The notes beneath the pieces are model-generated. The model saw nothing but the letters and a program-made list of their open reading frames with translations. It was not told where the DNA came from and did no database searches. The position numbers were made by a program, and so were the translations under genes. A DNA stretch of 64,000 nucleotides from Botryllus schlosseri (Eukaryota). The stretch is from assembly GCA_051294905.1 (NCBI GenBank), contig CM119372.1, positions 24,740,001 through 24,804,000 of the forward strand, written 5' to 3'. Below, piece after piece: positions 5,116 to 56,700 of this stretch. Positions within the stretch are counted from its first letter, which is position 1, and each line of letters opens with the position of its first letter.

Positions 5116-5600
5116 TAATGGAAGATTCCCAGCGTGTAGAGATGTTCCTTCTGGCGGCAGAGGATCGGCTTTTGCAGCTTTATAATGGTTGATTCAAGGA
5201 CCTTTAAATGAAAAAGAGAACGATCACGAGCAACTATGGAAAACTGATTGATATTGTAATGTTTTGCACACTCTGGGTGTTTCAATAGGTGCTGTCCGAT
5301 GGCAGAATTACATGCTGTTACTTGGTCATAATCATGCATGGTAACTAAGAGACTGTGATGATGAAGCAGACATGTCATCACCCTGCGAATTCCTAATTTG
5401 ACGTGGGACGTGCTGACGAATTCTTTGTTGCAAGCGTTGAGATATGCGACCCACATACCGACTGACCTCATTTGCTGGCGTTCACTGCTGAAGAGAGCCA
5501 GTCGAAAAGCTTCCAGTGGAATAAATTTAACAATATGAACGTATTGTTTGCTGCAATATTGAAGTTCTGTACTTCGAAAAGCCCATTCTATTGTTGTTCT
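5116..5600 (-). mobile_element. Penelope-like retroelement 3' fragment (GIY-YIG endonuclease) with inverted pseudo-LTR
   Basis: Frameshifted RYVGRISQRLQQRIRQHVP and SAIGQHLLKHPEC..FSIVARDRSLFHLKVLE..I...KPILCRQKE, typical of the PLE GIY-YIG C-terminus; 5461-5556 is an inverted copy of the downstream repeat (5052-5075 plus ~1767-1838). Confidence 0.8.
5474..5520 (+). ncRNA. Minimal type I hammerhead ribozyme, family 1 (Penelope pLTR)
   Basis: Stem I TTCACTG/CAGTGGA; core CTGAAGA (5488-5494); stem II GA-GCCAG-TC; GAA; palindromic stem III AAGCTT; cleavage-site C at 5513; upstream CTGGC complementary to loop II GCCAG. Confidence 0.8.
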
Positions 5601-5676
5601 GGAATATTTGAAGAGCTTATTACTGGAGGTACAGAACTTCGATATACAATTGCATAGAATATTCATATTGAAATGA

Positions 5677-5720
5677 ACCCGAACATTTTCGGCTGACACT
5701 CATCAGGGGTAATCGTCAGC
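5677..5720 (-). ncRNA. Minimal type I hammerhead ribozyme, family 2
   Basis: Minus strand reads GCTGAC-GATT-ACCC-CTGATGA-GTGTCAGCC-GAA-AATGTT-C-GGGT; lies within a ~140-bp repeat (~5620-5760) also present at ~8841-8935, 16280-16360 and 56329-56591. Confidence 0.7.
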
Positions 5721-7262
5721 AACTAGTAGAAAATTTGAAAGAACATTGTATATCAACACTCGTCACTCGTATCACAAAATATGACGCCACCAGCATGAAA
5801 TTTCGAATGAGAGAGCGTTCAATGTACTATTTTAGGTGGTACACGAACTTCCTCTGTTGACAGAGTTTGGGTTGGTGTATTTTGATCAAAGTCGACTCCA
5901 AGGCACACAAATGGAAGTGTGAACGGCAGTCGAACCGAAACTACCTCGTAATATTCCTAATTTAAGAATAACATAAAGACAGACAGACTGTTTTATTGAA
6001 CAAAATTGCAATAAAAATATAATACATGTTGCAGCGATACTATAGAATGTAAACGATAAGCGATACGATCCTTAGGGATTCCCGCAGATCATCCAGTCAG
6101 CTGCATTGATGGAGTACTAATTAAGCATTTTCAATTCGAGACCCGCGTCATAAATAAATTTAAAAAAAAAATAGGTTGGTAACCATATTGCAAATTTAGA
6201 GGTTTTGCAGACCACCGATTGATAACCACTGCATTGTGTCGACCATGACTTGCTAATTGCTAGTATGGATGAGGTGGTTTCAGTCTCATCGTCATGTCGT
6301 TTTTTTTGTGAGCACGCTGTTAGTAATGTCAAAGCCATTTTATAGCGAAGAATGGTGATACTGAAAGTGAGGCAATGATTCTTTGGGAAAACGATAAAGA
6401 TTTTAAAAATAAAATATTTCAAGCATTTGGAAATACAATAATGATATATATTTTCCGAAATCTGAAACCAGGTCGCAGGCCGCGTGTTGGTGAGCCCTGA
6501 TACAGACATAGGGTTAACAGGAAACAGAGATGGTCCGTTGCAATAAGTAGTTCTACTTTTTCGGAGAACTCAAGTGGGTTTTGCTGTGATTGCGAATTCA
6601 GACCACATCTACTTCTACTTAACAATTTCCTGTTTTTTTTTTTATGCAAAAGTATAGATCTAGTCTAGAATATCTGGACACCTTGGGATTGATTGCAAAT
6701 GATTGCTGATATACGAACTCAAATCAATACTAACAAAGCACATGCGTAATCGCCAGCACTGCACCATTTGGCAAAATTATCCATTTGATACACGTTCAAA
6801 TCAGTCCAATACTCGAATCATCATTCATCATTGACAGGGGCAAAATGAAATTGTACAATATTCATCGTACCAGGACCTATTGATCGCAATGACGTTCAAT
6901 AAATCACTTTATAGTAGGGACGCGTACAGGTACATCGCACATTGTGACAATGTTGTGGGTTGATCATGACTTCACAAATAAGTTATTTCCACTAACGTTC
7001 GTCGGTTTTGTACCTATACTGTTTGTTTTGTATGCTTCGATACGGTTTCACGGCTTCCGCAGTGGAAAATAGCATCGAAACTATAAATCCCGTTGTTAAA
7101 TAATCAACTTCCAGTGGCGGGTAGAATATATAATTCCAGTATTGGAAAAAAAATCATGTTTTACAACTGGACTCGAATCATTAAAATTAATACTCGATTC
7201 AGATTTGGAGACGTTCAGCAACTCTACTAGCGATGAGAATAAATTACTATGAATGGCCGGGA

Positions 7263-7836
7263 TAGGGTTGCTTTTAAAACAAAATTTAATTAAAAATAAA
7301 CATGCCTAAAACAAGGCACTTCTTTAAAACATGTTTTTTATTTTTTTTTAAGCCATGACGTTACGAATATTTGATTGTAATGTTACTGTGGATTAGCATT
7401 GAGCATTGACAATTGAAAATATAGGGTAAATAATAAATATGGCTCCTTCGTCGAAACGGGCTTCCGACCACTGTCATGAACAGACCAAAAATATCTTTAA
7501 CCAGGACTACATCGCCTATACGTAGCATTTTTACGTTTGGCGGTCATCATCATCGGAACAGCCATTCCGTACCAATGATCTGTATCTACATGCTAAAACT
7601 GTTGTACCGACGACGATTTCGAGGGTTCCAGCCACACCACATCGTTAACGTCGACTATTTTGGATGCAAATCGTCCGTAGGCTCATGCTGCATGTTTTTC
7701 GGACGTGTTTACTCAATTATAGCATAATTAGACAACGTTTGAAATTTTTTTTTTAAAGGCATTTGTTTAAAACACTGTTTAGAACATGTTTTAAGCAAAA
7801 TGTCTTAAACCGCCGTTTGTTTTAAATGCAACCCTA
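7263..7836. mobile_element. hAT-type MITE (TAGGGTTGC TIR, TTTTAAAAC-rich ends)
   Basis: TAGGGTTGC...GCAACCCTA; same family at 25309-25727, 34243-34696, 50005-50537; TSD degenerate in this copy. Confidence 0.75.
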
Positions 7837-8001
7837 ACAGGGAAATGTTCAGCAATTCCGAATAGACGCGGAGAATCGCATGCCACGTCAACGCGAATAG
7901 TTTTACCCGAATGCGTGATCATAGAGTCTTAAAGGGGTGTGGACACAGTGCAGTTGTCTGTCTCACCTTGAATTGGACTTGGTATTATTATCCCGATATA
8001 C

Positions 8002-9419
8002 CAGTGGTTCTCAACCTTTTTGGCTTCGCGGACCCCTTTTTACCGTCACGGACCCTTGCGGACCCCCTCAAGTTTTTGTTCAATTTTGGCTCCATGATGG
8101 TGCAACCTTCATCTGTCTTGTGCAAATATGAGCTGTAGGCTCGTGATAAACAGCAAAATCATGATTTGTCTTGAAAATAACATCATACTATTTATGTATA
8201 TGTATGCTGCTGTATTTCTTGAAGTAGCCTACGTGGTCGTGTCTTGAAAATCCGCGTCTTCGTTTTGATATGAACGAGGAGAGCCGAAAACCATTTCCGC
8301 AAAGATAGATGAAGGCTAAGGCAGTATTAACGCATAACGCTTCCGACGATACTTTTGGTGTGATCGCAACATTTATGGCACCAAAATGAAGAAACATATA
8401 TTTTATGAACATATCACGTCCAGCATCTAGCGCAGGAACGGGCAACATACGGACAGCGGGCGTGATTCGGCCCGCAGAGAGTTTCTACCGTCAAAGTGAA
8501 ATCCTAATCTAATATAGTATAGACAAATTTTATGCGCCAAATAATGGAACCAAGTTTTCCAACCTGAGAAAGACTGTCATGAAACGACTTGTTCTGTCCG
8601 GGTTCACATATATATTTACGAGCAAACATTTTCGACCATGAACAATTGAACATTAACAAAACAAGGCTGCATACCAATATAACTGGTGATATAAATTTCC
8701 GGGTTGAAGCGCAATGCTTTGATAGCAACGAAACACTCCTTGTTCATCAAAAAATCAGCTTTGTCGATAGGGCATCCGCAATAAGAATGCGCTAAATCTG
8801 ATAGCCGAGCTTTAAGAGCAGGTATACCATCGTTTGATTTATGACGAGTGTCAGCCGAAAATATTCCGAGTTCATTTCAATATGAATATACCATTCAATT
8901 GTATATCGAAGTTCTGTACCTCCAAGAAGCTGTTCAATGAGTGGTTATGTATATCACAGGATAAAATGGATTTCGTGGCGAGGTTTCAATCCCTGCATTG
9001 GGACAAATTAGGGAAATACTTCGGAAATTTTTATTTCAAACGACTGTTCACTAATTTGATGAGACTGACAACTTCAAGTCGAGAAGACATTACGAAGCCA
9101 CCCTGATTGACGTTACTATCTCCATATTTTTATTTTGTCAACAAACCCCAACAAAACGTCTCTAAACAGCAATATGTTTGTATCAGCAGGTTATTGGAAA
9201 ATTGGCAATGAAAATGAATTTCCACACTACGATAGTTCATGTCAGACGAATATTATGATGATGAGTCATATGAGGTTTTAGCAGTTGTGGTGCGAAACTG
9301 CTTCATGCTTTCTCAAATTAAAAAAATAAATAAAAATTACGTTATCAACCATTTTAAAAATTTAGAGGTCTTGCGGACCCCCTGAAATTGCTTCGCGGAC
9401 CCCCGGTTGAGAACCGCTG
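8002..9419. mobile_element. hAT (Buster/Charlie-like) non-autonomous element
   Basis: TIR CAGTGGTTCTCAACC / GGTTGAGAACCGCTG; TSD CGATATAC on both sides; related inverted copy at 38688-39780. Confidence 0.9.
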
Positions 9420-13400: not shown

Positions 13401-16400
13401 TTGCTCGAAATTGCGTAATAAGTGTTCACACATAGTAAATAGATATTAGAATTGGATGTACTTGTACATTGTAGTGTGATTGTAAGAGCACCCGAAATGC
13501 TACATATCTGGCTATCATTACCAGAGATGCCACTCCTGGGTTTTTCCACCCATATCTGGGTTTTTCGAGCATCACCTGGGTTTCTGGGTTTTTGTGCTTG
13601 AAATCTGGGTTTTTTTCAACATCATGTTTGTCAGGTCAATTTTACGGCGCAAAATTGATTATTAGCTTAGTAAGATCTTATAATATCGAAGGATTCTACT
13701 GTGATTGAGTCTAAAGAGACCCATTTACTATTAAAATGAGAGGTCTTGGCGTGATGAGAGAGCTTAATCGAATACTGACTACTAGGTCGTAGAAAGTCGT
13801 TTTCACAAGGCAACTCTGGAGCATTTGTTTTGCAATTCAAAACGATTTAGGACTTGAATGCTAGCGCTGCAACAAATTCGTTGTGTGTCAGTAAATAGTA
13901 TGTACCTGCTGTAAAGTATGCAACTAATGCACATGGAAAGACCAAATGTTGATCTAACTAATTTACCATGTTGACATCAGAGTATATTCACTTTCAACAG
14001 GGACACTCAAAGAGACGGGTTGGGCACCCGGGCAAGTTATTCAGAGGGAGAGGGGTTTGTCAAATTCAAATGTACCCTTAATTTCACGATCTGGCAGTTT
14101 CTTCTTTGACTAAACATCACAGATAAAAGTGCTTGTCCCAGGTTTAATGAATCGAAAGCTATTCTTAATCTATCTGGTCAGCTCACAGTCACTGGAACTA
14201 CCCTAAAATCATCCTCATCATAGATGGGAATTAGTATTGTGACAAACATTACGAATATATAATAAACTACGTATTGACCCCCCCCCCTCTATACCGAATG
14301 CCCGTAGCAATGTATCGAGAGGAAAGCATCATATTTCGATGGATTTGCTCATTTAACTGAGCAAAATGTATAGTATGAAAATGAACAGTTGGGATTTCAA
14401 TATCAAGGGCTAAAACTTCTTCTATGCCCGTATAACTGTCATTGATGACTCTCAGTCACTGTTTTGCAGCTATGTCATATAAATTTGAGTGAAATATAGG
14501 ATCTGGGTTTTTCTGGGTTTTTTCAACGTCCAAATCTGGGGTTTTCCAAAATATCTCAGTGGCATCTCTGATCATTACCCTCGAAACACCACTACCTCGC
14601 ATCAGGACAATATTCACCACTTTGCCTGGTTTCGAATAGTAACTTATCTATTGATATTTGGTTATGCTGAGGTAAACGCAATTTGACCGTTGCTGCTTGG
14701 CGAGCTGTAGGCATATGTAGCCTACGTGTACGTGCGTACACCTGACAAAGATTTTTAGTTCTGTGCTCGACAAATGATATATTAAGATTTCAACAACGAA
14801 GCAATGCAAACTGCTGCTACATATCATAACCGAGCCGTTCTTCGCCGTTTCTCGTAACCGCAGCAAGCACTTTCTGTATTCAGTGGAAGGCAGGATTTAT
14901 GCTCATTTTATCTTATTCTCCTATGACTATACTTGAAACGGGAGCCAATCGTTATTTCGCAATTCTTTACTCAACACTTGGACCTGGTGCCATAGCAATC
15001 CGCTTATACACCATGTTAGCGTGGGATCAGGACCAAAACAGCAATTCGTCCCCCACTACAAACGTTGGTCTTACGCCTTCATAGGGTGGTTAATTTTAAA
15101 GTTGATGACGGAATTTCGTCAATAATATTGGTAATTGCATTATGTTACTATACATTTTAACCCTCTCTCAGCCCCGATGGTCAGATTTACCAGTAGAGCC
15201 GGGGACACATGATTCATAATTATATCATCTGCTATGTTGTTATTATTACTTTATTTCAGTGGTTCCCAACCTGTGGTACGCGTAGGCTACCACTAGTGGT
15301 ACGCAAAGGTCTTCCAGGTGGTACGCGAGTAGATTCTGTTTTTTTTTTCGATCGAAGGCTAAGGTACGTCCGTGGCAAAGTACGTCGAAGAAACGAAAAC
15401 GACTTGTGGCGCCCATGCATGACTTTCGATGCGCTGTGAGCAAACGGATGCCACGCATCGACCAGCTAGTGGAAAATAAACATATGCAGCCATCGCATTA
15501 AATGAATTGACTTTTGTTGTTTGTTAATGTTATTTCATTATGTTTTTCTTCTTGTAACTGGTGGTGAAAAGACAATTCCATGCATCACATCAACCCTGGC
15601 TGATAATGACTAATTTAATGGAATTTCTTATTACACCTCGCATATGGGACTGGGCATAATGATTCGAGTACTCGAATCTGAATCGAGTATTAATTTTAAT
15701 GATTCGAGTCGAGTAGTAAAAGGCGATTTTCTCGAGTACTGGAATTATACGCTCCTCACCACTAAAAGCTAATTTATCAACGAGGATTATAGTTCGATAC
15801 TACTTTTCACTGTTGAAGCCATGAAACCTTGACATGCCGTACCGTAGCATACAATACATGTAGTACAACGCTACGACCGTTACTGGGAATAACACGATTC
15901 TGAATTCATGATCATTCCACAACATTGTCACCAAGTGCAATGAAATCGGTATGGTCCAGAAAATACCTAAGTATCTTCAATGTGATGAATAACGGGCATT
16001 ATATTCTTTGCAGTGGTATTAAAGGTACATTTTGTACTTTGACATACTGCATTCGGTTATGACGTCACGATGAGTGATACTCGATTACTCGACACGAAGC
16101 AGAATGCGCGATTCAGAATCGAATCCCCGGGTTCTCAATTTTGCCCAGCCCTACTCGCATAGGTATAATACGTGATTATGACGTCATAGATGGTGGATGT
16201 AGGGTAGGTGGTAACCGAGCACTGCATAAAACCTCGAAATCGTAAGTGGGTGAAAAAAGGTTGGGAACCACTGCTTTATTTGAACAGCTTCTTGGAGGTA
16301 CAGAACCTTAATATACAGTTGAATAGTATATTCATATTGAAATGAATATACTATTCAATTATACTTTATTGTGTGTTGTTAATTCGCGACCTCCAGTCTG

Positions 16401-18158: not shown

Positions 18159-18492
18159 CTGCGTTCAAATTGAGTAACATTTAGGAAATGTAATATCTAA
18201 AACGCTTGAAAGACATATGTTGGAGGAACTCGAATATGACTCTGATAGGCCTACTGCGTTTCATAAATCATACATAATTAACAAATGATCTAATAACTAT
18301 GACAATATCTCGGTCAGATGAGAATTTAAATGAGTGCCTCTCGAAATATGTCATTGTAATTGACATTCTTCGTGTTTATCCCAGACGGGTTCGTGGTAAC
18401 TAACCATTGGGACTCCGAAACATACTGAGCAAGATAACGACATCGCATGCATACATGGAGTAATCGCGATTAGTAATCGTAATCGATTACGA

Positions 18493-19185: not shown

Positions 19186-19512
19186 GATTACGACGATTAC
19201 TGCATTTTCAAGTAATCGTAATCGCAATCGATTACATTCGAAAAAATTCCGAAGTAATCGTAATCGACTACTTCCCATATCTAATCGATTTCTTTGTAAA
19301 AGGACGATTACTTTTCATTTGTACAAGGACTATGACATAAACTGAACATTCGTGAACAAGGACGAGATATTATACCAGGTTCGTGATAGCACAAACGTCT
19401 GATTTTCAAATGCCATTGCTCATTATTACGTCAGAAGTAGACTATTAGCTTGCTGGTCATTGCGTAAGAAGTATCCACAGTAAATAGATATTCGATTGTA
19501 CGTACATTAGTG

Positions 19513-21219: not shown

Positions 21220-21388
21220 CATTAGTGTGATTGTAAGAACACGTTCCACACGGCAGTACCTCGCAGCATGATAATTAATCACATCTCTGCCTAGTTTAAA
21301 ATATTAACTTGTGTATTGATGTTTGGTTATGCTTAAACGCAGTTTGACCGTTGCTCCTTGGCGAGCAGTAGGCCTATGTAGTACGTAC

Positions 21389-25727: not shown

Positions 25728-27361
25728 CTATATATTATGTATGCTTCTTTTGTTGAGGGGGAGACGTATGCATTAAAAATTCAAGCTTATCTAAAGAGAA
25801 TTTTCAAGTCAATAAATCTCTCGAAAATACTTTATAATTTATGTTGGTTTACGAAATACTTTTGAGTCCCCTTCGAGCTCGCTCCTCACCCTATTGGGAA
25901 ATTTGGGGTGCGGCAGTCATGGACCTGGCAAGAATGCAAATCGTTGGGTGCGATAAATCGTCCTCTACAAAAATGGGCAATGTGTATATTATGACGTAAC
26001 AAGCAAATCACGCATCTTTGTTAAAGGAAAGTAGGCCTTTTCAGCGCAATCCATATATTGTGTTCCAATATAACTTCTAAGATGCAAAATCAATGTAATC
26101 GTAGGTAATCGTGATTACTTTTCCAATGTAATTGTAATCGTAATCGACTACTTCCTGATTTTGCTGTAATCGTAATCGCATCATTCAGAAGTAATCGTAA
26201 TCGCAATCGACTACATTCATGAAGTAATCACCGCGTGTCTGATCGCATGCCGTTTACGGTCAATATGGCTCAGGAATCAGTAGCATACGACACTCATTTC
26301 TACTCGTATTATCACGACTTATATTGGCATTCAATACGGCTACTATTTCTTTATAATTCCTATTTACGTTGCGACTTGCAAGGTTAAATCGCGAAATTGT
26401 CATATTCTTCCATCAGTCAATTTTAACAGGATGCAAGAGCACGGATCGCTCTATGAAGTGTAATGGAGGACCACGACTGTGGAATAGTATATCGCCGGCA
26501 GTCCATTTGAAATTGCCTACACTCAAATCAAAATAAAAGCACATTTTGCTAAATAAATACAAGTGTGTGCGTGTGAACTCGAGATTATACCGAACCACGA
26601 TCAGACAAGCTATATTCGCCTGCCGACACATGACACATATATGTCATTTTTATTTTGTCTCCTGTTACTTTTAATTCAGTCGACTGACTTTTAGGGTGTT
26701 TGATTGATAGACTACTCCAAGTCTTTTCGACTCCTTTTTTAACAGGTTCATTGCACTTAGCGGTTGCACGTTACCTGCGCGCGCTACGTTACTCTCTTAT
26801 AGTTATTTCTTTGAGTTATAGTAATGTTATGATTGTGATAGCTTACATAGTCAGGCTGTGAATTAGTTATAGGCTTAGTTAAGGATAGCACTTTGGATTG
26901 TGCGAATAAAAACATTGCTAATAATCTATGGATTTTGATGATACCGTATCGTTGGGCGTTTACCATGGTATTGCTTTACTGTCTATCCTTAATTGTGAAT
27001 TATCATTAATCAAGTCTGCCATATGTCAAGTGCAGTTCTAAAAAGGTAGGGTTCAGGGATCAGTTCAGTAGTAGGCCTACGCATCCTACTGTCTGGCGCC
27101 CGTGCGATAAAAGCGACTTGTTGGGCCTGATCCCACGAAATTAGAACTTGTATTGGTGGTAGGCTGACGACTCAAAACGCACTTTAAATAGCACGGGCCA
27201 CTTTCACCATATTGTTTTGTTGTAGGTGTTAAAGTTAAGCGGATCTATGGCGACAAGGAGCCTAGATAGACTTCCAACATACATGAAGGGAGTCGAACTC
27301 GCGACCCATCGAAGTGTTAAAGTTGAAACTAACGATATCGTCAATGAACCTACGATATCCT

Positions 27362-30300
27362 TGTTATGTTCTTGATCTTGTTTGAACAATAACTCAATAC
27401 GACGAGGTTGCAATACGAAATCAGTATATTTTACAGCAGTATGACTTTAAGGCAGCGACACGATCCAGAGTACAGATAAAGGAAAAGACCACGAGAGAAC
27501 AGAACACAGGGTATAAATACGAAGCACGACACACGAAGAAATAATGATTGGCGGTAATTACTAATCCTAGACAAATAAGAGTGAAACGATACCAACGTAA
27601 AAACACGAACATAACAGTCCTCCCCTGTAAGTTAAAGGGTGCAGGGCGATTCACGTTGGCCGGTAGAAATCAGTTTGTCTCCTATTTCTAACGGGGTAAC
27701 GTCTACCCGACGTACGAGCAGGACTAGCTGCAGGACGTTGTGCCCTATTACGAACCAATGGTTGCTCAGCTTGCGACTGTTGAGGCTGAGCAACTTCCTG
27801 TGTGGCTGTATCATTACTTGTGGAAATCAAGCGTGGCTGGAGTTGGTTTTTGTGCCTTCTCCAATACCCATGATCTGTTTTTATAATGTACACAACACGC
27901 CCCAGTATTTCCGTCACCACGCCAGCAACCCACTTTGGTCCGCTTCGGTAACTGCGAGCGTAAACCGAGGAACCAATCTCGAAATGAGTGACTGATTGTC
28001 TAGGCGTAACGGGTTTCGATTTGTCGAAGGGCGAGCACAAACTTAACAAATTGCGCGGCTGTCGACCATGTAAAATCTCGGCAGGCGTTTTCCAGTCTAT
28101 GCCCGGGTGCGGTGCACATCGGTACGTAGCGAGAAGTGTTTGGAGCGCGAAGTTGAGATCTTTTCCCCCGTCGCAATTTTTTATTAATCCAGCTTTTAAA
28201 GTCTGGACGAATCGCTCCGCTTCCCCGTTCGAGGCAGGGTGAAAAGACGGTGATACGATATGGCTGATTGCCTAATTAGAGCAAAACGTATCGAATTCAT
28301 TCGACGTGAATTGCGGCCCGCCATCCGTAACAATTGTTATGGGCAAGCCTTCAATAGAGAAGACTTCCCTCAAAGCGTTGACCACACACAAGGTTGTGGT
28401 AGAACCGACATTCATTACTTCAACGAAAGGATATTTTGAATGCGCATCGACGATGACAAGAAACATTTTATTGTTTATTGGACCTGCGAAGTCCAAGTGA
28501 ATCCGTTCAAAGCTTTCAGACGTTTTGGGCCATTCGCGATACCGACGATCAGGCGCTTTCATTACTTTGCGGCAAGCGTCGCAACTCTTAACGAGATTTT
28601 CAATGTCGCGATTAATGGAAGGCCATGCGATGTAACGTCGAGCCATCTGCTTCATTTTCGCGATACCCCAATGTCCTTCGTGCAACAATGATAAGACTCG
28701 CGAGCGAAGTGACTGCGGAATTACTACGCGCTGAAAACCATCAATATTGAGCATGACTATGTCTTCGTGCAGAGAAAGCGAATGTTTGCGAGTCGAAAAC
28801 CAAGAAAAATCATCAATGTGCGTCTTTGGATTCCAATTACCATGAGTGACAGATAATTTTACTAGTTTCATGGTTTTGTCCTTCAGCGTCGCGTCGCGAA
28901 TTTCATTGCGAGTTAACGGTAAGCCATCGAATGCCATATTAATAGCGTGAACGATCTCAGCGTTTTCACGAATTTCCCGTTCGTCAAACTCAGGGTCTGG
29001 ACCCTTTGGTAGGCGAGATGAACCGTCGGCGTTTCCGTGCTGATTAGTCGGTTTATAGCGAATATCGTATTGGTAAGCCATGAGCGTTAGTGCCCATCGC
29101 TGCAAGCGTTGCGCTGTAATCACGGGAATTTTCTTGTCTGGCGAGAAAATAGCTAAAAGCGGTTTGTGGTCCGTTACGAGCGTAAATTTTCTACCATACA
29201 AGAATTGACGAAATTTAGTGACTCCGTAAATGATTGACAGAGCTTCCTTCTCTATTTGAGAGTAGGATTTTTGCGAATCGGAAAGTGTTTTCGATGCGTG
29301 CGCGATCGGTCTCTCTTCGCCATTGTGCTCGATTGAGAGGACAGCGCCGATTCCGAATTGAGAAGCATCAGTTGACAAAATGAGCTGCTTGTTTACATCA
29401 TAATGAGCTAACTGCGTAGCGTCGATTACGTCGTTTGAGAATGCGAAAAGCTGCATCACAGTCCGCATTCCAAATGAATTCCGCGTCTTTTTGAAGAAGA
29501 CGGTACAAGGCAGCGGCTTTATTCGTGAAATTAGGAATAAACGCGCGATAATAATTGACTTTGCCCAGGAATGCCTGTAGCTGGCGAACATCCTGAGGTT
29601 TAGGCAACTGTTTGATTGCTTCAACGGATTTGTGAGACGGGCGTTTGCCGTCCTTGTCTATTATATGACCAAGGTACTCGATACTACTTTTGAAAAATTC
29701 ACATTTCGCGAAGTTGACGGTGAAACCGTACTCGGTGAGGCGCTCAAAGAGTAGCGATAAGTTGCGAAAATGATCGCGTTCATCAATGCCAGTAACGATT
29801 ATGTCATCGATAAAACTAGCAACACCGGGTAAGCCGGCGATCATGGCATCAATACAACGTTGAAAATTTGCGGGACTAGATGCGACTCCGAAACACATGC
29901 GTCGATAACGGAAAAGACCGAATTGCGTGTTTATGACACACAAATTCTTCGCATCATCATCTAATTCTAGCTGAAAATAAGCATCGGCAAGATCAATTTT
30001 CGTAAAAATGCAACCACCCTGTAACTTGTGAAGAATTTCATCTAAAGAGGGCAGGGGATGTTGATCTATCTGAATCTGTTGATTCAATGCTTTGAAGTCA
30101 CCACAAATGCGTACTGATCCATTTGATTTAGTGACGGCAACAATTGGCGCTGCCCAATCACTGTAATTGATTGTTTCGAGGATACCTTGATTGACTAATC
30201 TATCCAATTCGGTTTGAACAGCGATTTGCCTTGCGAAAGGCAAAGGGCGTGGCTTGTTGAATACGGGCTTGGCATTAGGTTTCAAGTGAATTGTCACCTT

Positions 30301-32121
30301 TGTCTTGGTGCATCGTCCTAATACATTAGAGAAAACGGAGGGAAATTTGGACTTAAAAGATACCAATTTGTCGTTCGAATCAGAAATGTCAATAGTATTA
30401 CAAGATTGCGATTTGACCATCTGCGAGGAAATTGCATCCAAAGCAGACGTTCCCTTAGCGGTCATGGAGAAAGCATCGCTCCAATCGAGACCAAAAATGT
30501 TTTGCCCACGGTGTTCGTCGAGAACCACCAATTTTAAGCCAACTTGAACTTCAGAACCCACCTGCACAGTTGCAGTGCAAATACCTTTCACTTTCAGTGG
30601 CTTGTCGCCGTACGCTACGAAAGAGCAATGGTATGCTGAGAGTTTCGGAGAGCCCAAAGTTTTGTACCCAGTCAATCCCACCATGGCGGAGGGTGCACCA
30701 GTGTCCCACTGTGTCGGCAACGGAATGCCGTTGATGCTGGAGTTGATCCAGAGCTGGTTTCCCACGCGTCGATATAGTTGATCGATGTCGAAGGAGAGGA
30801 GTGGCACTGAGCAGAAATTGACGGATGTGACCTGTTGTGTGACACTAGGTTTGGTAGACATGCACACAGGTTTGATATGACCTTTACGACCACATTTCTG
30901 ACATACTGCATGTCGATATTGACAGTCTTTTCTCTGGTGATCGATGAAACAGCGGCTGCAGGATTTCAGTCTTTCCGTGAAGTTGCCTTGGTTGGATTTG
31001 GAAGGTTTTTTCCCCTTCTGATAACTTCCCGTCATCTTGTTGACGACGGAAGTGCCTTTACCGCTACTCTCGCCTTGGATAACCCTATCAGTTTCCAGCG
31101 TTCTCACGTATGTTGCGGCTACTTTGAGAACGTCGTCAAGGGATGGATTGGTTTGTGTTAGACAATGCCGTCTCACATCCGCGTGCGGCGTTTCTTTAAT
31201 GATGAGATCGCGCATTAGCTCATCAACGCAGCTTTGATCACAGCCATCTCTTGAGCACGTGAAGTTGCAATCCTTGGAGATTCCGCGTAGAGTTGCGATC
31301 CAATCAGCGTATGACTGTCCCGGCTGCATTTTGCAATTGTAAAATTCGTACCTGGCTGCTTGCACATGAATTGAATCCTTGAAGTGTGTGGACAACTTCT
31401 CAGTCAACGCATCGAAGGTTTGCGCACTGACATCAGCAGCACCAAACAAATTACGTAGGAGCGAGTACGTTTCAGGTCCAACCCATGAGAGTAGACACGC
31501 TCTTTTCTTCTCCATGTTGGAAATGCCGTATATTGCTAGGTGATGGTTAAATCGCTGAAGATATTGGTCCCATTTCTCCTTTGATTTTGCGAACGAATCA
31601 AACTTGGGAGCGGTAGCTTCAGATGTTGACATACCGGGACTCAACCTCTGCGCTAATTGCGCCATTTCTTCTTTATGCTGTGCGCGTTGTTGGTCCAGAT
31701 CTTCTGTGCCGAGCATTTTGCTGCTCCAGCTGATCTTTTTGATTTGCGATTGTTTCATGTAGACTCGCCATCATTGCCTGCTGCTTCTCGAGCAGCTTCA
31801 ATATACCTGAATCCATGCTTAATATTCGTCGCAGAAATAACTTTGAATCCGACCTCTGACACCAATTGTTATGTTCTTGATCTTGTTTGAACAATAACTC
31901 AATACGACGAGGTTGCAATACGAAATCAGTATATTTTACAGCAGTATGACTTTAAGGCAGCGACACGATCCAGAGTACAGATGAACGAAAAGACCACGAG
32001 AGAACAGAACACAGGGTATAAATACGAAGCACGACACACGAAGAAATAATGATTGGCGGTAATTACTAATCCTAGACAAATAAGAGTGAAACGATACCAA
32101 CGTAAATACACGAACATAACA
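27362..32121 (-). mobile_element. Full-length Ty3/Gypsy (Mag-like) LTR retrotransposon, copy A
   Basis: 255-bp TG...CA LTRs at 31867-32121 (5') and 27362-27616 (3'), 3 mismatches seen; TSD ATCCT; PBS TGGTGTCAGAGGT; PPT AGGGGAGGA; gag-PR-RT-RH-IN order. Confidence 0.97.
27651..31816 (-). pseudogene. Disrupted gag-pol of copy A
   Basis: Versus copy B: 2-bp deletion in early gag (~31703), 2-bp deletion at ~29435, TTG>TAG stop at 28272-28274; DTGA, FIDD, TDAS, HHCC and DDE motifs retained. Confidence 0.92.
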
Positions 32122-32514
32122 ATCCTATTGATACAGTTGCAGATATTGCGAAACTGCATTCAGCCGGTCTGTAAATGTGTTCAAAATAAAAAATTATAAA
32201 ATAAACCACTCCTTCGCCTACTCACTGCTCTGAACCGATCCGACAACAGAATCAACTGTGAATAGCGATTCTGACAACTTTATCGGCAGGAAGGTATTCT
32301 TTGGAAATTTCGCCTGAATTTGGTAGCTCTTGGGATAGCGCTGCATTTCTACCTTCTTCGACAGACTATTCGTTTTCAAAAACGATATATTCACAAATTT
32401 CGACAAACGCGTTTCCATATAATATTGTGACGTTATAATGATTCTCGTAAAGCAATCGCAACTTGTGTCAAGAGTTCTGTATTTGTACCAATAGTAACTT
32501 AAATGAGTATTTAT

Positions 32515-44700: not shown

Positions 44701-47700
44701 CCATGAAGACATATCCAAGAATGCCGCTGTTGACAGTTTTCGAATCGCATATGAAATCGATAAGTGTAAAATTAGAGCGGGGCGAAATCGAACCTGGCTC
44801 ATTCGATTCTGAGTCGAGCTTTGAGTCCAGTGTTCGAGTATAGCATTCATTAGACGCCATAAGAGTACGAACAAATTTGAAAGTTCTAATAGGTACCATA
44901 ATTGTGGCCACAAGGAAGATAATGACATTTACAATAATTTTATACCTCCTCGCTACGATCATTTCATCTCGCTTTGCTACTGTCGCGGGATGATCACACA
45001 TATGGATGTGAATTGAATACGCACCACTAAATATTCGTGAACTTTTGCTGAGTATGATGATATGATATGACCAATCGAGTTTTTAGGGCTGTCACGATGA
45101 GAAGAAAGTATTGAAAATATAATTCTCTTTGACAAAAACTGTTATGTTCGTGTATTTACGTTGGTATCGTTTCACTCTTATTTGTCTAGGATTAGTAATT
45201 ACCGCCAATCATTATTTCTTCGTGTGTCGTGCTTCGTATTTATACCCTGTGTTCTGTTCTCTCGTGGTCTTTTCATTTAACTGCACTCTGGATCGTGTCG
45301 CTGCCGTAAAGTTATTCTGCTGATAATATACTGATTCTGTATTGCAACCTCGTCGCATTGAGTTATTGTTCAAACGAGATCAAGAACATAACAATTGGTG
45401 TCAGAAGTCGGATTCAAAGTTATTTCTGCGACGAATATTAAGCATGGATTCAGGTATATTGAAGCTGCTCGAGAAGCAGCAGGCAATGATGGCGAGTCTA
45501 CATGAAACAATGGCAAATCAAAAAGATCAGCTGGAGCAGCAAAATGCTCGGCACAGAGAAGATCTGGACCAACAACGCGCACAGCATAAAGAAGAAATGG
45601 CGCAATTAGCGCAGAGGTTGAGTCCCGGTACGTCAACATCTGAAGCTACCGCTCCCAAGTTTGATTCGTTCGCAAAATCAAAGGAGAAATGGGACCAATA
45701 TCTTCAGCGATTCAACCATCACCTAGCAATATACGGCATTTCCAACATGGAGAAGAAAAGAGCGTGTCTATTCTCATGGGTTGGACCTGAAACGTACTCG
45801 CTCCTACGTAATTTGTTTGGTGCTGCTGATGTCAGTGCGCAAACCTTCAATGCGTTGACTGAGAAGTTGTCCACACACTTCAAGGATTCAATTCATGTGC
45901 AAGCAGCCAGGTACGAATTTTACAATTGCAAAATGCAGCCGGGACAGTCATACGCTGATTGGATCGCAACTCTCACGGAATCTCCAAGGATTGCAACTTC
46001 ACATGCTCAAGAGATGGCTGTGATCAAAGCTACGTTGATGAGCTAATGCGCGATCTCATCATTAAAGAAACGCCGCACGCGGATGTGAGACGGCATTGTC
46101 TAACACAAACCAATCCATCCCTTGACGACGTTCTCGAAGTAGCCGCAACATACGTGAGAACGCTGGAAACTGATAGGGTTATCCAAGGCGAGAGTAGCGG
46201 TAAAGACAAGATGACGGGAAGTTATCAGAAGGGGAAAAAACCTTCCAAATCCAACCAAGGCAACTTCCTGGAAAGACTGAAATCTTGCAGCCGCTGTTTC
46301 ATCGATCACCAGAGAAAAGACTGTCAATATCGACATGCAGTATGTCAGAAATGTGGTCGTAAAGGTCATATCAAACCTGTGTGCATGTCTACCAAACCTA
46401 GTATCACGCAACAGGTCACATCCGTCAATTTCTGCTCAGTGCCACTCCTCTCCTTCGACATCGATCAACTATATCGACGCGTAGGAAACCAGCTCTGGAT
46501 CAACTCCAGCATCAACGGCATTCCGTTGCCGACACAGTGGGACACTGGTGCACCCTCCGCCATGGTGGGATTGACTGGGTACAAAACTTTGGGCTCTCCG
46601 AAACTCTCAGCATACCATTGCTCTTTCGTAGCGTACGGCGACAAGCCACTGAAAGTGAAAGGTATTTGCACTGTAACCGTGCAGGTGGGTTCTGAAGATC
46701 GAGTTGGCTTAAAATTGGTAGTTCTCGACGAACACCGTGGGCAAAACATTTTTGGTCTCGATTGGAGCGATGCTTTCTCCATGACCACTGAGGGAACGTC
46801 TGCTTTGGATGCAATTTCCTCGCAGATGGTCAAATCGCAATCATGTAATACTATTGACATTTCTGATTCGAACGACAAATTGGTATCTTTTCAGTCCAAA
46901 TTTCCCTCCGTTTTCTCTAATGTATTAGGACGATGCACCAAGACAAAGGTGACGATTCACTTGAAACCTAATGCCAAGCCCGTATTCAACAAGCCACGCC
47001 CTTTGCCTTTTGCAAGGCAAATCGCTGTTCAAACCGAATTGAATAGATTAGTCAATCAAGGTATTCTCGAACCAATCAATTACAGTGATTGGGCAGCACC
47101 AATTGTTGCCGTCACTAAATCAAATGGATCAGTACGCATTTGTGGTGACTTCAAAGCATTGAATCAACAAATTCAGATAGATCAACATCCCCTGCCCTCC
47201 TTGGATGAAATTCTTCACAAGTTACAGGGTGGTTGTATATTCACGAAAATTGATCTTGCCGATGCTTATTTTCAGCTAGAATTAGATGATGATGCGAAGA
47301 ATTTGTGTGTCATAAACACGCAATTCGGTCTTTTCCGTTATCGACGCATGTGTTTCGGAGTCGCATCTAGTCCCGCAAATTTTCAACGTTGTATTGATGC
47401 CATGATCGCCGGCTTACCCGGTGTTGCTAGTTTTATCGATGACATAATCGTTACTGGCATTGATGAACGCGATCATTTTCGCAACTTATCGCTACTCTTT
47501 GAGCGCCTCACCGAGTACGGTTTCACCGTCAACTTCGCGAAATGTGAATTTTTCAAAAGTAGTATCGAGTACCTTGGTCATATAATAGACAAGGACGGCA
47601 AACGCCCGTCTCACAAATCCGTTGAAGCAATCAAACAGTTGCCTAAACCTCAGGATGTTCGCCAGCTACAGGCATTCCTGGGCAAAGTCAATTATTATCG

Positions 47701-50700
47701 CGCGTTTATTCCTAATTTCACGAATAAAGCCGCTGCCTTGTACCGTCTTCTTCAAAAAGACGCGAAATTCATTTGGAATGCAGACTGCGACGCAGCTTTT
47801 CGCATTCTCAAAAACGACGTAATCGACGCTACGCAGTTAGCTCATTATGATGTAAACAAGCAGCTCATTTTGTCAACTGATGCTTCTCAATTCGGAATCG
47901 GCGCTGTCCTCTCAATCGAGCACAATGGCGAAGAGAGACCGATCGCGCACGCATCGAAAACACTTTCTGATTCGCAAAAATCCTACTCTCAAATCGAGAA
48001 GGAAGCTCTGTCAATCATTTACGGAGTCACTAAATTTCGTCAATTCTTGTATGGTAGAAAATTTACGCTCGTAACGGACCACAAACCGCTTTTAGCTATT
48101 TTCTCGCCAGACAAGAAAATTCCCGTGATTACAGCGCAACGCTTACAGCGATGGGCACTAACGCTCATGGCTTACCAATACGATATTCGCTATAAACCGA
48201 CTAATCAGCACGGAAACGCCGACGGTTTATCTCGTCTACCAAAGGGTCCAGACCCTGAGTTTGACGAACTGGAAATTCGTGAAAACGCGGAGATCGTTCA
48301 CGCTATTAATATGGCATTCGATGGCTTACCGTTAACTCGCAATGAAATTCGCGACGCGACGCTGAAGGACAAAACCATGAAACTAGTAAAATTATCTGTC
48401 ACTCATGGTAATTGGAATCCAAAGACGCACATTGATGATTTTTCTTGGTTTTCGACTCGAAAACATTCGCTTTCTCTGCACGAAGACATAGTCATGCTCA
48501 ATATTGATGGTTTTCAGCGCGTAGTAATTCCGCAGTCACTTCGCTCGCGAGTCTTATCATTGTTGCACGAAGGACATTGGGGTATCGCGAAAATGAAGCA
48601 GATGGCTCGACGTTACATCGCATGGCCTTCCATTAATCGCGACATTGAAAATCTCGTCAAGAGTTGCGACGCTTGCCGTAAGGTCATGAAAGCGCCTGAT
48701 CGTCAGTACCGCGAATGGCCTAAAACTTCTGAAAGCTTTGAACGAATTCACTTGGATTTCGCAGGTCCACTAAACAACAAGATGTTTCTTGTCATCGTCG
48801 ATGCGCATTCGAAATATCCTTTCGTTAAAGTAATGAATGTCGGATCTACCACAACCTTGTGTGTGGTCAACGCTTTGAGGGAAGTCTTCTCTATTGAAGG
48901 CTTGCCCATAACAATTGTTACGGATGGCGGACCGCAATTCACGTCGAATGAATTCGATACGTTTTGCTCTAATTTGGCAATCAGCCATATCGTATCACCG
49001 TCTTTTCACCCTGCCTCGAACGGGGAAGCGGAGCGATTCGTCCAGACTTTAAAAGCTGGATTAATAAAAAATTGCGACGGGGGAAAAGATCTCAACTTCG
49101 CGCTCCAAACACTTCTCGCTACGTACCGATGTGCACCGCACCCGGGCATAGACTGGAAAACGCCTGCCGATATTTTACATGGTCGACAGCCGCGCAATTT
49201 GTTAAGTTTGTGCTCGCCCTTCGACAAATCGAAACCCGTTACGCCTAGACAATCAGTCACTCATTTCGAGATTGGTTCCTCGGTTTACGCTCGCAGTTAC
49301 CGAAGCGGACCAAAGTGGGTTGCTGGCGTGGTGACGGAAATACTGGGGCGTGTTGTGTACATTATAAAAACAGATCATGGGCATTGGAGAAGGCACAAAA
49401 ACCAACTCCAGCCACGCTTGATTTCCACAAGTAATGATACAGCCACACAGGAAGTTGCTCAGCCTCAACAGTCGCAAGCTGAGCAACCATTGGTTCGTAA
49501 TAGGGCACAACGTCCTGCAGCTAGTCCTGCTCGTACGTCGGGTAGACGTTACCCCGTTAGAAATAGGAGACAAACTGATTTCTACCGGCCAACGTGAATC
49601 GCCCTGCACCCTTTAACTTACAGGGGAGGACTGTTATGTTCGTGTATTTACGTTGGTATCGTTTCACTCTTATTTGTCTAGGATTAGTAATTACCGCCAA
49701 TCATTATTTCTTCGTGTGTCGTGCTTCGTATTTATACCCTGTGTTCTGTTCTCTCGTGGTCTTTTCATTTAACTGCACTCTGGATCGTGTCGCTGCCGTA
49801 AAGTTATTCTGCTGATAATATACTGATTCTGTATTGCAACCTCGTCGCATTGAGTTATTGTTCAAACAAGATCAAGAACATAACAAAAACCTGTTGGCGC
49901 CAAGAGCGTGACAAACCAACACTTACTTACATCACTATATATACTCCACTCGAATGATCGCAATTGATTCTCGAATCGTTGTGCCCGCAGTCCCGTGCTA
50001 ATACTAGGATTGCATTTAAAACAAAATTCAATTGAGGAGAAACATGTTTTACGCATGTTTTTTCAGTCATGACGTCACGAATATTCAATTGTGACGTGAT
50101 AGTGGAGTGACATTAACACTTGAAAATACAAGGTAAATACAACTCTTTTGAGGAAATGGGCTTCCAACCCCTGTCTTATACGGACCAGAAATATCTTCAA
50201 CTAGGGCTACATTATCTTGCAGCTTTTTTACGGTCGGCGGCCATCATCATCAGAACATTCATTCCGTACCAATGATGTATATCTATGTACTATAGGCCTA
50301 GCTGTTGAACCAACTATTTGGAGGGTTTGAACCATCCCATATGGTCGGCTATATCCGGATGGTAATCGTCCGTTGCCTAATACAACATGTTTTTTGGAAA
50401 GGATTTTACACAGTTATGGCATAACTATACAGCCGTAAAAAAATGTTTTGATAAAAAAGGCATATGTTTAAAGCACTGTTCAAAACATGTTTTAAACAAA
50501 GTGTTTTAAACAAACATTTGTTTTAAATGCAGCCCTAGCTAATACGCGTAGAAGCCGATCGAATATATTATCCGGTAAAAATCTGCAATCACCTTGGCAT
50601 TGTCCCTGATAACAGCGTTTCCGTTCTGCAGTTCTTCGACATTTTTACGAACTATTGCGCTTGTATTTTGTACCTCATTGATTTCAGTAAGAATACGCTG

Positions 50701-53700: not shown

Positions 53701-56700
53701 GCAGAGGAAAGCCTACTTGAGTGCTCCGAAAAGGTAACAGTGCTTCGTCAGTGACCACCTCTGTATGATTATGGTTGCTGCTATACGCATTCTGGTAGTT
53801 TGCCTGTGGTGTAAGCCAAAAGAGTTCTGAACCACTGTGGTAGTGTGCCGCGAACTATTTTTAATTTTCAAAGTGTGCCGCGAGGTCAAAAAGGTTGAGA
53901 ACCACTGACTTAACATATCTATTGTGACGTGGTGAGCCAATACAAAGTCACAATGTCTGGGTCTGGCCAAATATTCGCCACCGGATGCCCAAATTACCAT
54001 CATCCTGTCCATTGACAGAATAGTGCAAGCATATATGTGTTTGAGTTTAATTAAAACCTGTTTGGCCACCTACAGCATGCTTACATTGATTTTCATCCTC
54101 TTTTCAAAGATAAGGACACATCTTTTGAATGAGAGCGGTATGGCGACGCAGTATCTATACAATACACGGTATGTCTACAAAAAAATTTAATATATGTGTA
54201 AATTGTCAAAGAATTACACATTGCTAATGATCAATATCCGAATTCATCAAAATTTGTAAAATACGATCCAACAAATTATATGATGAGTTATCGAGAGTTT
54301 GTTGTATGATATTGTTACTAAGTCATGCCAGATGCCACGGGAATGTTTTACGGATGTTTTACGAAAAACACTGAGATATTTCAATTTGATGCTTATGGTA
54401 TACTCTCTTTGTAAAAATATATAACTCTGGACTTAGCAACCGAGGTCTACGGTATATGAGGATGATTGATTTCTTACACTTCCTACTTCGCTAAACATGA
54501 AATATTTGTCGTATGTGTTCTTGTGACAGAACATCAACCCTAATGTACGTGATATGATGAAAACTAAACTAAAATTTTCTATATGGTATATGGCAGGGGT
54601 GGCCAACCTGTGGCCGTACGGCCGTATGCGGCCGTAGAAGGTATTTTGTCCGGCCGTGCGCACGTAATTCAATCAGTATGTGTTGGCGGCCGTCGACATG
54701 CAATTTGAATTTACGAATTCAGTCCCGGTTTCTCGGGAGATTTTAATTATTCTTGAAATTTTCTTCGGCCTGCGCGCGATTCAATGTGACGTCATTTTCT
54801 ATTTAATATAGTAGCGCCCTTTGCAATCTGATCCCCACAGTACAGATGCCAACATCAGAGGGAAATGATGCGCCTCATAGAAATACCAACTCGAAATCGT
54901 GTGCTCCTCGCTATACCGACAACCCTGAAGGGATGTCAAGAAATTACAGCATGCAACAAGTGACTAATAACAATTGGCCCAGCCGAAGATGCATCATCAT
55001 TTATAATTTACCCTAAATTTTCGAAAAAAACTCCATTAACTATATCGGTGAGTCAGATCACGTGTGCTGAGAAGGGACAAATGTTTGATAGTAATATGTA
55101 AAACTACTAATATTAATAACGAAATTCATCAGAGAATCTGAAAAAAATTTAGCGCTTCGCGGGACTGTCCACAATCCGATAGCGTGACTCGCGATTTCGG
55201 TGCGTATAGTAGGCGTGTATGACTAAATAGATTAGTCCAAAGTGTACCGGAAATGGACATAGACCTTTTAACATGGGTATTTGGCGTCCAGCGAGTTCAT
55301 TGCGACTACGCCCTGGAATGCGGCCGTAGGCTACATGAGTGGTCGAAATGCGGCCGTGAATGGCAAAAAGGTTGGTCACCCCTGGTATATGGTGAGCCTG
55401 TGGCATGATAATAATCTTTCAGTTTTAGAAGTATGAAAAACGAAGGATTTGATGGACGCTATTACTCACTTTCTACGGGTTTCATTTCTCAAAGACTGGT
55501 TCGCTCTTACTAGCTGTCTCATTTTGCCTCGTAATGCGATGTTTGTGTATCTTACATTGCGCAGCATATTCGACAGTGCGCCTATGGTCGCTTTATTCAA
55601 GGCAACCCCTTCCTCCAATGATTCCATCCTGGAGCTCTGAGTTGTATTCATCTCACCAACGACGTCCAGTATACCTGCCAAAGCGCGGAAGAAAATCGAG
55701 CTATTCTTGAATAATTATATTCAAATCATCTATAAAAGTTCATTTCGATATGCGTGAAAATGTATATATATATTAGGGTTGTTCAAAAATATATTTTTTC
55801 AGATTTTCGCGGCTATAATTGTTAGGTTGGCTAAAAAACGTTGCACACCAAATTTGACTCTATTCCGACTAGTAGAAGCGAAACTATTAGAGTCGGAAAA
55901 ATTTGAATTTTTAATTACAAATTTTACTGTCTACCACATCGGATTATGCAGTAGTCTAATAAAACGGTACACAGCAAATTTGGCTAAATTTCAACTGGTA
56001 GAAGCGAAGGATTTGAAAAAAATGATATTTATTGTGGGTAATCCAACAATTTAATGAAAAACTCGAATAGATTCAAGTCTACGAGCTGGATTGAGTCAAA
56101 TTTGTTTTTTTTTTATAGTTTTCATACATAACTTTCAATTTAATGGGTTAGCCAGTCAAATTTGAAAAAAAAACATATTAAATTAAAAATTTTCAAACTC
56201 TATTAGCTTCACTTCTAATCATTGGAATTGATCCAAATTTGAAGTCCAACGTTTTTTTAGTAAACCTAACAATTTTAGCTAATAACCGCAAAAATCTGAA
56301 ACAAAAAGTTTTTGAACAATCCTAATATTTGAAGAGCTTCTTGGAGGTACAGACCTTCAATATACAATTGAATAGTATATTTACATTGAAATGAACCCGA
56401 ATATTTTCGGCTGACACTCGTCAGGGGTAATCGTCAGCATCTAGTATAGAATTGGAAAGAACATTTTATACATTGTAATACGATTGTTGATATACAATGT
56501 TCTTTCCAATTCTCTACTAGTTGCTGACGATTACCCCTGACGAGTGTCAGCCGAAAATATTCGGGTTCATTTTATTATGAATATACTATTTAATCCTAAT
56601 ATATCTAAATTATATATTGCTTCATATGCGCGTCGGTGTTCGTGCAATTCATAATATTTACTGACTTCCCGTCCTTGTCCAATAATTATATGTCTTTGGC

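Follow-up and report, generated by a model that had tools for sequence, protein, structure and literature searches.

A 64,000-nt stretch of the Botryllus schlosseri genome (GenBank assembly GCA_051294905.1, contig CM119372.1, forward-strand positions 24,740,001 to 24,804,000; hereafter the window, with position 1 as its first letter) contains four motifs that resemble type I hammerhead ribozymes. We propose that these are minimal type I hammerheads located in the pseudo-long terminal repeats (pseudo-LTRs) of Penelope-like elements (PLEs) with a C-terminal endonuclease, and that their helix II is knotted, with one strand supplied by the sequence upstream of stem I. We assign this reading a probability of roughly 0.78. 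Hammerheads in PLE pseudo-LTRs are a known kind of ribozyme (PMC4209133; here and below, statements from the main texts of cited papers refer to the parts of those texts available to us). The pseudoknotted minimal-hammerhead architecture shared by the families described here is supported by the pairing and covariation of their sequences.

We scanned the window for CUGANGA followed after 5-14 nt by CGAAA and recovered one family-1 (F1) and three family-2 (F2) motifs. Each has a hammerhead core, G10.1 and C11.1 enclosing 7 nt, an H17 and a stem I of 4 or 7 bp. The F1 motif lies at 5474..5520 on the plus strand, as identified by pattern scan and sequence, and reads in DNA letters GCTGGC (extension), G, TTCACTG (stem I), CTGAAGA, G, A, GCCAGT, C, GAAA, AGCT, T, C, CAGTGGA. 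Its extension occupies 5474-5479, the linker 5480, the 5′ strand of stem I 5481-5487, CUGAAGA 5488-5494, domain II (G, A, GCCAGU, C) 5495-5503, GAAA 5504-5507 and the palindrome AAGCUU 5507-5512. C17 is at 5513, the cut is predicted between 5513 and 5514, and the 3′ strand of stem I follows at 5514-5520. Two F2 copies are on the minus strand, at 5677..5720 (extension 5720-5715, core from 5706, stem III palindrome broken) and at 56395..56438 (extension 56438-56433, core from 56424), and the third is on the plus strand at 56523..56566 (extension 56523-56528, core 56537-56543, domain II 56544-56552, 3′ strand of stem I 56563-56566). All three share the order GCTGAC, GATT, ACCC, CTGAYGA, G, T, GTCAGC, C, GAAA, ATAT, T, C, GGGT. 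Stem III in the window motifs consists of the lone A15.1-U16.1 pair and a 4-nt loop, and the resulting AAGCUU (F1) and AAUAUU (F2) are 6-nt palindromes.

An earlier note on this DNA had claimed that two families within 5474..56566 follow one plan, in which stem I and the palindromes (AAGCTT or AATATT) go with a domain II of 9 nt and an invariant core. This plan matches the window sequences, whose core reads CUGANGA ... GAAA ... UH. Several details needed adjustment. Both families are present in the window, but F1 has only one copy there. The F2 palindrome AATATT is found at 56395-56438 and 56523-56566, whereas the copy with its core at 5706(-) has AATGTT. The motifs themselves occupy 5474-5720 and 56395-56566, and the intervening 50 kb is unrelated DNA. 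The F1 pairing given as CTGGC/GCCAG is indeed complementary, but its length is 6 bp when the G.U pair is counted.

In F1 and F2 alike, the 6 nt preceding C11.1 can pair with a 6-mer whose first nucleotide lies 14 nt upstream of the core; the strands are GCUGGC/GCCAGU in the F1 window copy and GCUGAC/GUCAGC in F2. F1 copies elsewhere in the genome have an ACUGGC extension, which is fully Watson-Crick with the loop strand. Both the sequence and its folding indicate that a hairpin stem II cannot form in domain II, where only G10.1-C11.1 pairs and the other 7-8 nt cannot pair with themselves. Comparison of F1 with F2 alone gives just one full compensation. We sought further families with descriptors that left the upstream strand unconstrained.

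Five further sequence types follow the same plan: F3, F4 and F5 in this genome, and M1 and M2 in metagenome contigs. The plan comprises G10.1, one bridging nucleotide, a 6-nt strand and C11.1, together with a complementary upstream 6-mer 8-10 nt before the core. F3 pairs ACUAAC with GUUAGU (bridging A) and has a linker G, a 7-bp stem I and AAGCUU; the search for it returned 396 matches against 2 in the control. F4 (GCCGAC / U GUUGGC U, with a variant GCUGAC / GUCAGC) accounts by eye for at least 10 matches from a search for longer domains II (78 matches vs 27 in the control), in which no hairpin-type family appeared. F5, with a 5-bp GUGCC/GGCAC pairing and a U3-A8 core variant, accounts for 4 of 100 listed matches from a noisy UUGAAAA-core search (1,376 vs 688 in the control). 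A repeat, TTGAAAATGCGACCAGAAAC, was also frequent in that search; we rejected it as a hammerhead since it has no stem I. M1 (UCUGAC with GUCAGA, bridging U or C, linker GAU, stem I AUCCC/GGGAU) is present in about 100 copies, and M2 (UGACGC with GCGUCA, bridging U), which differs at four of the six pairs, in one. A further single copy, L078, pairs UCUGAC with GUUGGA through two wobble pairs.

The spacing of these elements varies little. There is exactly one bridging nucleotide (A, U or C) between G10.1 and the loop strand in every type. The distance from the 6-mer to the core is generally 8 nt, rising to 9 in M2 and 10 in L078, and linker and stem I together total 8 nt in F1-F5 and M1. The core C3-U4-G5-A6-N7-G8-A9 ... 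G12-A13-A14 with A15.1-U16.1 and H17 is present in all window copies and all families, F5 having the compensated U3/A8 form that also occurs in Fig. S3 of Cervera and De la Pena 2014 (PMC4209133). Minimal hammerheads of PLEs have a stem III that is absent or 1 bp, with a palindromic 15.x-16.x segment or loop 3, and the families here agree with this. The palindrome is AAGCUU in F1, F3, F4, M1 and M2 and AAUAUU in F2, and the AAGUCUU of F5 is palindromic except at its centre.

Two additional searches of the genome returned variants of known families. When loop position 2 was required not to be G, essentially all 321 matches were decayed F2 or F3 copies, and no new family appeared. A search with an A-U closing pair gave 29 matches against 11 in the control, and the only group seen, with about 14 of the 29 matches, was a minor F2 subfamily whose closing pair is A10.1-U11.1. 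In that subfamily both sides have changed together, so the closing pair of domain II is kept by compensation. As a separate observation, a hairpin like the histone 3′ UTR stem-loop (RF00032) lies directly 3′ of the M2 motif (L136:99-145, minus strand; 27.7 bits, E=1.5e-4), below the gathering score of 34.

The earlier note had proposed that the pseudoknotted architecture covaries, and the larger set of families bears this out. In the 15 sequences with all helices, 95.6% of the pseudoknot cells are paired and 5 of the 6 pairs have changed on both sides. Stem I, which is formed by the 5′ and 3′ ends of the motif as in type I hammerheads and is 4-7 bp long, also covaries, with 75.2% of its cells paired and changes on both sides across families at 5 of 7 pairs. 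When the partner strand was slid by 1-3 columns, 23-38% of cells were paired, and none of 500 shuffles reached the observed covariation score. An alignment of 17 sequences, which misplaces 1-nt F4 and F5 insertions downstream of the loop and on which the pseudoknot alone was counted, gave 94.1% paired cells, again 5 of 6 pairs changed on both sides, and 18-35% in the slid controls. This amounts to a covarying Watson-Crick helix that links the sides of stem II and stem I, of the kind described by Perreault 2011, with 94-96% of cells paired vs 18-38% when slid. Swapping extensions and loops across families reduced the Watson-Crick pairs from 5-6 to 1-5. Calculated duplex energies for the pseudoknot range from -4.1 to -8.8 kcal/mol.

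We estimated the chance rate of such pairing from 70 core matches in viral contigs. All 70 look like chance matches, and we therefore rejected them as hammerheads and used them as background: one has 6/6 pairing at the right distance and two have a stem I of at least 4 bp. A metagenome pattern that fixed only the core, the 9-nt spacing and AAGCUU returned 121 stretches, of which 105 were far enough from a contig end to be scored. A stem I of at least 4 bp was present in 93 of the 105; 89 of these have 6/6 pairing, most of them non-independent M1 copies, two have 5/6 pairing, and the other two are chance matches.

The same pairing could in principle be inherited baggage, that is, a short inverted repeat that arose by chance in an ancestor, with the double changes being chance or hitch-hiking events in master copies and no selection on structure. 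We consider this quite improbable. Four of the six pairs are identical across F1-F4 and M1, as inheritance alone would give, but M2 differs at four of the six pairs and F5 at several, and all remain complementary. Pair 1 is seen as A-U, G-C, U-A and G.U. The linker, the bridging nucleotide and the stem I sequences diverge freely while pairing and spacing are kept, and a 6-mer of this kind arises by chance at a rate of 1 in 70. Two further points in favor of this explanation, drawn from the F2 copies, are taken up below.

The carriers of the motifs point to PLEs. Both F1 and F2 copies sit just downstream of open reading frames (ORFs) that match RVT_1 (2e-15 for F1 and 2e-8 to 9e-8 for F2), often with an inverted 5′-truncated partner, and F4 adjoins a related PLE ORF. 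F3 forms tandem 2,778-bp units whose copies are identical, with intact 853-aa ORFs and intact motifs. A reverse transcriptase (RT) plus GIY-YIG ORF with tandem or inverted copies is the arrangement expected around PLE pseudo-LTRs, and the motifs here lie in such a setting. Inverted 5′-truncated and tandem arrangements have been described for PLEs (PMC8557442), and both the pair at 56367-56594 in the window and the genomic F1 and F2 arrangements match that layout. Within the window, an ATG in the conserved AACAATATGAA context is found at 5535..5537 on the plus strand, separated by 21 nt from the predicted F1 cut upstream of it. Its counterpart in intact F3 units is the start of the RT ORF and lies 19 nt past the cut (in L039, ATG at 1076 and core at 1031).

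Genome-wide copies of both families, which the earlier note had suggested collecting, proved abundant. In 495.5 Mb of sequence (219 contigs), whose tRNA-Ser gene and GC of ~0.40 are eukaryote-like, the F2 30-mer with at most two mismatches gave 4916 + 4822 = 9,738 matches and the F1 31-mer 164 + 157 = 321, vs 0 + 0 for each of the reversed-pattern controls. The bare core pattern by itself is not significant in the window (1 match vs 1.79 expected). The full F1 and F2 motifs are beyond chance, because their genome matches are abundant and the reversed controls returned none.

These copies bear on the possibility that the motifs are decayed relics of canonical PLE hammerheads with a hairpin helix II, with no folding or cutting left. 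Most copies are dead retro-copies, one window copy lacks an intact palindrome, and published PLE minimal hammerheads cleave poorly in vitro (PMC4209133), all of which would fit decay. Against it, F3 persists as identical tandem units with intact ORFs and motifs, and an exact 30-nt stretch from the extension to the loop is common to 3,781 F2 copies. Longer domains II capable of forming a hairpin were mostly F2 copies with small insertions, plus F4, in the search mentioned above. Because this search was near background, the 9-10-nt domain II is the propagated form and not a deletion product. We give the relic explanation very little credence.

We propose the following geometry for the knotted hammerhead. 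Stem III would be the single A15.1-U16.1 pair, and a true helix III would require two motifs to pair through the palindrome, as is the case for other PLE hammerheads and for those of amphibians. Helix II would form without a hairpin: G10.1-C11.1 would close a 7-nt loop, six of whose seven nucleotides would pair with the upstream 6-mer, positioned just 5′ of the stem I strand. Since the 6-nt strand continues straight into C11.1, the helix of 6 bp can stack on the G10.1-C11.1 pair, and the two would add up to a helix II of 7 bp in which the 5′ leader contributes the 10.x strand. Like loop 1 of an H-type pseudoknot, the single bridging nucleotide would span the deep groove of the 6-bp helix, and the linker of 1-5 nt would connect the distal ends of helix II and stem I. 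It is at the distal ends of stems I and II that natural hammerheads make a loop-loop contact, and fast hammerheads need a tether between these stems. With this stacking and this linker, the pseudoknot would provide helix II and, at the same time, the tether between stems I and II.

Cleavage of read-through or tandem PLE transcripts would fall after H17, 14-21 nt upstream of the ORF start codon. The released RNA would then begin 14-21 nt before the conserved AAUAUGAA start context, and the upstream RNA would keep nearly all of the ribozyme at its 3′ end. The sequences establish the motif, its PLE context, its copy numbers and the covariation; we infer the stacking geometry, dimer formation, cleavage and biological role, the geometry by reasoning rather than from a three-dimensional model. 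For F2 and F4 motifs generally, and for 5554-5648 in the window, folding of monomers with nested pairs gives a rival 5-bp hairpin (CCGAA/UUCGG) that would lock away G12-A14 together with the cleavage site, and this may represent an inactive monomer state.

Several observations weigh against our reading, some concerning the pairing and others the cleavage. As to pairing, the alignment rows were of our own choosing. At pair 4 within F2, 3,781 copies are unchanged, 33 are changed on the loop side only and 33 on the extension side only; there is one compensated double vs 0.29 expected, which is no excess. Decay among F2 copies looks neutral, which is what retro-copies that are dead on arrival should show, and support for the pairing therefore comes only from differences between families. 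Those families are related, so there are few independent compensatory events, and M2 and L078 are single copies. In one F2 subfamily, by eye about a fifth of 100 listed matches, pair 6 is C.C and pair 1 is often A.C. Because this subfamily spread, its elements must have multiplied with only 4-5 bp. The lack of excess doubles and the spread of a subfamily with broken terminal pairs are the two further points in favor of the inherited-baggage explanation.

As to cleavage, dimer competence is predicted from the palindromes, and the AAUAUU duplex of F2 is calculated at only -0.2 kcal/mol, compared with -4.3 for AAGCUU. We examined RNA reads on a locus carrying F1, F2 and F3 motifs (L233, C1:19461700-19471600) using one bulk and two single-cell RNA runs and one contig run. 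No pile-up of read beginnings or ends was listed at the predicted cut sites near 220, 488, 8577 and 8687, at a read depth of 30-70 and with 99% of the bulk reads fitting only partly, being from other copies. In the available part of their report, Frangieh et al. likewise describe no RNA-seq ends at a PLE hammerhead site and find cleavage dispensable for PLE insertion in vitro (PMC11167929). Both strands of the F2 region of L233 are transcribed, and its F3 copy is truncated ~45 nt after the motif. In the same locus, RNA reads and the contig define GT..AG spliced joints at 734-2432 and 2598-5189; this places its F2 copies near 5025-5136 within or next to introns of a host transcript.

An alternative is that the helix is real and conserved but has a role other than catalysis. 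Once any cleavage has occurred, or at the natural 3′ end, it would be located at the 3′ terminus of PLE RNA, where it could be a structure for RT recognition or priming, or a fold that silences single (non-tandem) motifs. The whole ribozyme is just 3′ of the ORF and is kept in 5′-truncated copies, PLE reverse transcription starts near the RNA 3′ end with cleavage unneeded for insertion in vitro (PMC11167929), and read ends are absent at the predicted cut sites in L233. Nested folding also places the 6-bp helix in the minimum-energy fold of several members, without stem I. Against such a role, the topology of the helix allows stems I and III to form as well and keeps the core free of pairing, and the helix sits where other hammerheads have their experimentally validated stem I/II pseudoknot (PMC3088659). 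Every family has its catalytic core conserved alongside the helix, including F5 with its compensated U3-A8 variant. We therefore regard a purely non-catalytic role as unlikely, although less so than the other alternatives, and continue with the interpretation of these motifs as hammerheads with a knotted helix II.

The motifs are largely invisible to current covariance models. The earlier note had suggested comparison with Rfam and with published PLE hammerhead alignments. In Rfam 15, the motifs were undetected at gathering score: across the whole window, no hammerhead was found either at that score or with E up to 10 (RF00163, clan CL00010). On a 321-nt stretch, Hammerhead_1 gave 16.6 bits for F1 over 5482-5519 (E=0.32), vs a gathering score of 34. 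F2 gave no match on this stretch, and the F3, F4, M1 and M2 sequences likewise gave none. The knotted form is also absent from the tables of PLE hammerheads that we examined in the supplements of PMC4209133 and PMC8557442.

In Fig. S3 of Cervera and De la Pena 2014, helix II is a hairpin of 3-8 bp closed by its own loop in all 56 representative PLE motifs, most of which also carry an extra nucleotide between A9 and G10.1 (PMC4209133). The word pseudoknot does not occur in the available main text of that paper, which reports that a shorter 5′ end on a Schistosoma mansoni construct made no clear difference. Our motifs resemble those minimal hammerheads in their pseudo-LTR site, type I arrangement, CUGANGA/GAAA core and G10.1-C11.1 pair, in a one-pair palindromic helix III that implies action as a dimer, in a short helix I, and in a copy number that runs to thousands per genome. 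Across all seven sequence types they differ in having a domain II of 9-10 nt without a hairpin, a G10.1 that directly follows A9, and a helix II partner strand upstream of stem I. In File S2 of Craig et al. 2021, stem II measures 3-9 bp in every Hydra and Chlamys PLE hammerhead listed, and the paper also reports, in the text available, elements with a hammerhead core only that fit no stem-loop descriptor (PMC8557442). By eye, at least one nematode Naiad consensus in that supplement, among those annotated as core-only, has a CUGACGA...GAAA core and a ~5-bp stem II; ~12 nt in its long loop could pair with the sequence that immediately precedes the core, an arrangement that resembles the leader/loop II pairing. 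A 2020 review by De la Pena describes PLE hammerheads as lacking helix III or tertiary loop-loop interactions, in the part we consulted (PMC7761336). Reviews also summarise them as poor catalysts that have no tertiary contacts between stems I and II.

The closest known contact is that of Perreault 2011, who reported pseudoknots between stem I and the stem II side in all three hammerhead types; for a type II ribozyme with a 1-bp stem II and a 6-bp pseudoknot, deletion, mutation and rescue showed that the pseudoknot is needed for fast cleavage (PMC3088659). As in that ribozyme, the segment following 10.1 in our motifs would pair with sequence adjoining the 5′ strand of stem I, again with a 1-bp stem II and a 6-bp pseudoknot. 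The Perreault ribozyme is type II, is bacterial or phage-associated, acts as a monomer with a normal stem III, and makes its contact between loop I and a tail after stem II. In contrast, the present motif is type I and carried by an animal retroelement, the tail is closed onto C11.1, stem I is open and stem III is of the dimer type. In its predicted pairing, then, the present motif is a type I circular permutation of the Perreault contact. In type-SGC permuted hammerheads, a stem I strand is joined to a stem II strand by a ~3-nt linker and a further helix holds the two stems together (PMC10085705). The likeness is that the core tolerates stems built from non-adjacent segments; unlike in our motifs, however, the conserved blocks themselves are permuted there, whereas here the classical type I order is retained and only the 10.x strand of helix II would be displaced.

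In the literature we searched, with subscription papers outside it, we found no description of a PLE hammerhead with a leader/loop II pseudoknot. In 2017, Lunse, Weinberg and Breaker reportedly found very many small dimeric PLE hammerheads with a very short palindromic stem III, and their abstract reportedly mentions contacts of loop II with nucleotides preceding stem I as a general feature of earlier hammerheads. Dimeric hammerheads are said, from the work of Forster in 1988 and that of Lunse and colleagues, to pair through stem III and to depend on the dimer for activity. The combination of a type I PLE hammerhead with a pseudoknot-built helix II appears new, and the main uncertainty for its novelty lies with the 2017 variants.

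It is possible, although we hold this only tentatively and with some doubt, that at least one widespread PLE lineage, present both in this animal and in a metagenome-borne eukaryote unrelated to it, has shifted helix II's 10.x strand to the leader, giving a self-tethered ribozyme that is missed by Rfam and by the hairpin-based RNAmotif descriptors applied to PLEs. If so, PLEs scored as core-only or hammerhead-free may carry working knotted hammerheads, and constructs that contain the leader may cleave fast at physiological Mg2+. A knotted helix II would bear on why PLE hammerheads look catalytically weak in vitro and on what their role is. Current detection undercounts this form, with Rfam covariance models missing it and published descriptors demanding a helix II hairpin. 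With its predicted cut 14-21 nt before a start codon, the motif also merits comparison with ribozymes of retrotransposons and RNA viruses for which a role in promoting translation initiation has been reported (PMC13725137).

The window contains other traces of these elements. Repeat analysis places a tail-to-tail junction of short 5′ portions of an F1 (+) and an F2 (-) element at 5538..5676; the F1 and F2 post-hammerhead sequences there are related to each other and form an inverted repeat, and an Rfam search gave matches to hairpin-type microRNA (miRNA) models at 5554-5648. A third copy of the F2 post-hammerhead segment, identified as a member of the repeat family, lies at 16254..16346 on the plus strand with no hammerhead motif adjoining it and is a truncated PLE fragment. 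At 56367..56594, F2 pseudo-LTR fragments form a head-to-head inverted pair with 104-nt arms that are 92% complementary and 20 nt apart. The plant miRNA model MIR6027 (RF04199) matched at 56397-56564 on the minus strand (60.8 bits, E=1.2e-10, gathering score 95). We rejected this match as a long-hairpin artefact, because the inverted F2 pair itself makes a long hairpin. Head-to-head PLE ends can thus mimic miRNA precursors, and both strands of such regions are transcribed.

Two further features lie apart from the motifs. Two ~4.7-kb elements at 27361-32126 and 45138-49886 have direct repeats of ~260 bp at their ends, resembling LTRs; they are in opposite orientation, 13 kb apart, and share 96-99% identity over their aligned segments. 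A tRNA gene with a long variable arm is present at 382-463 on the plus strand (Rfam, 64.3 bits), which we read as tRNA-Ser with anticodon AGA.

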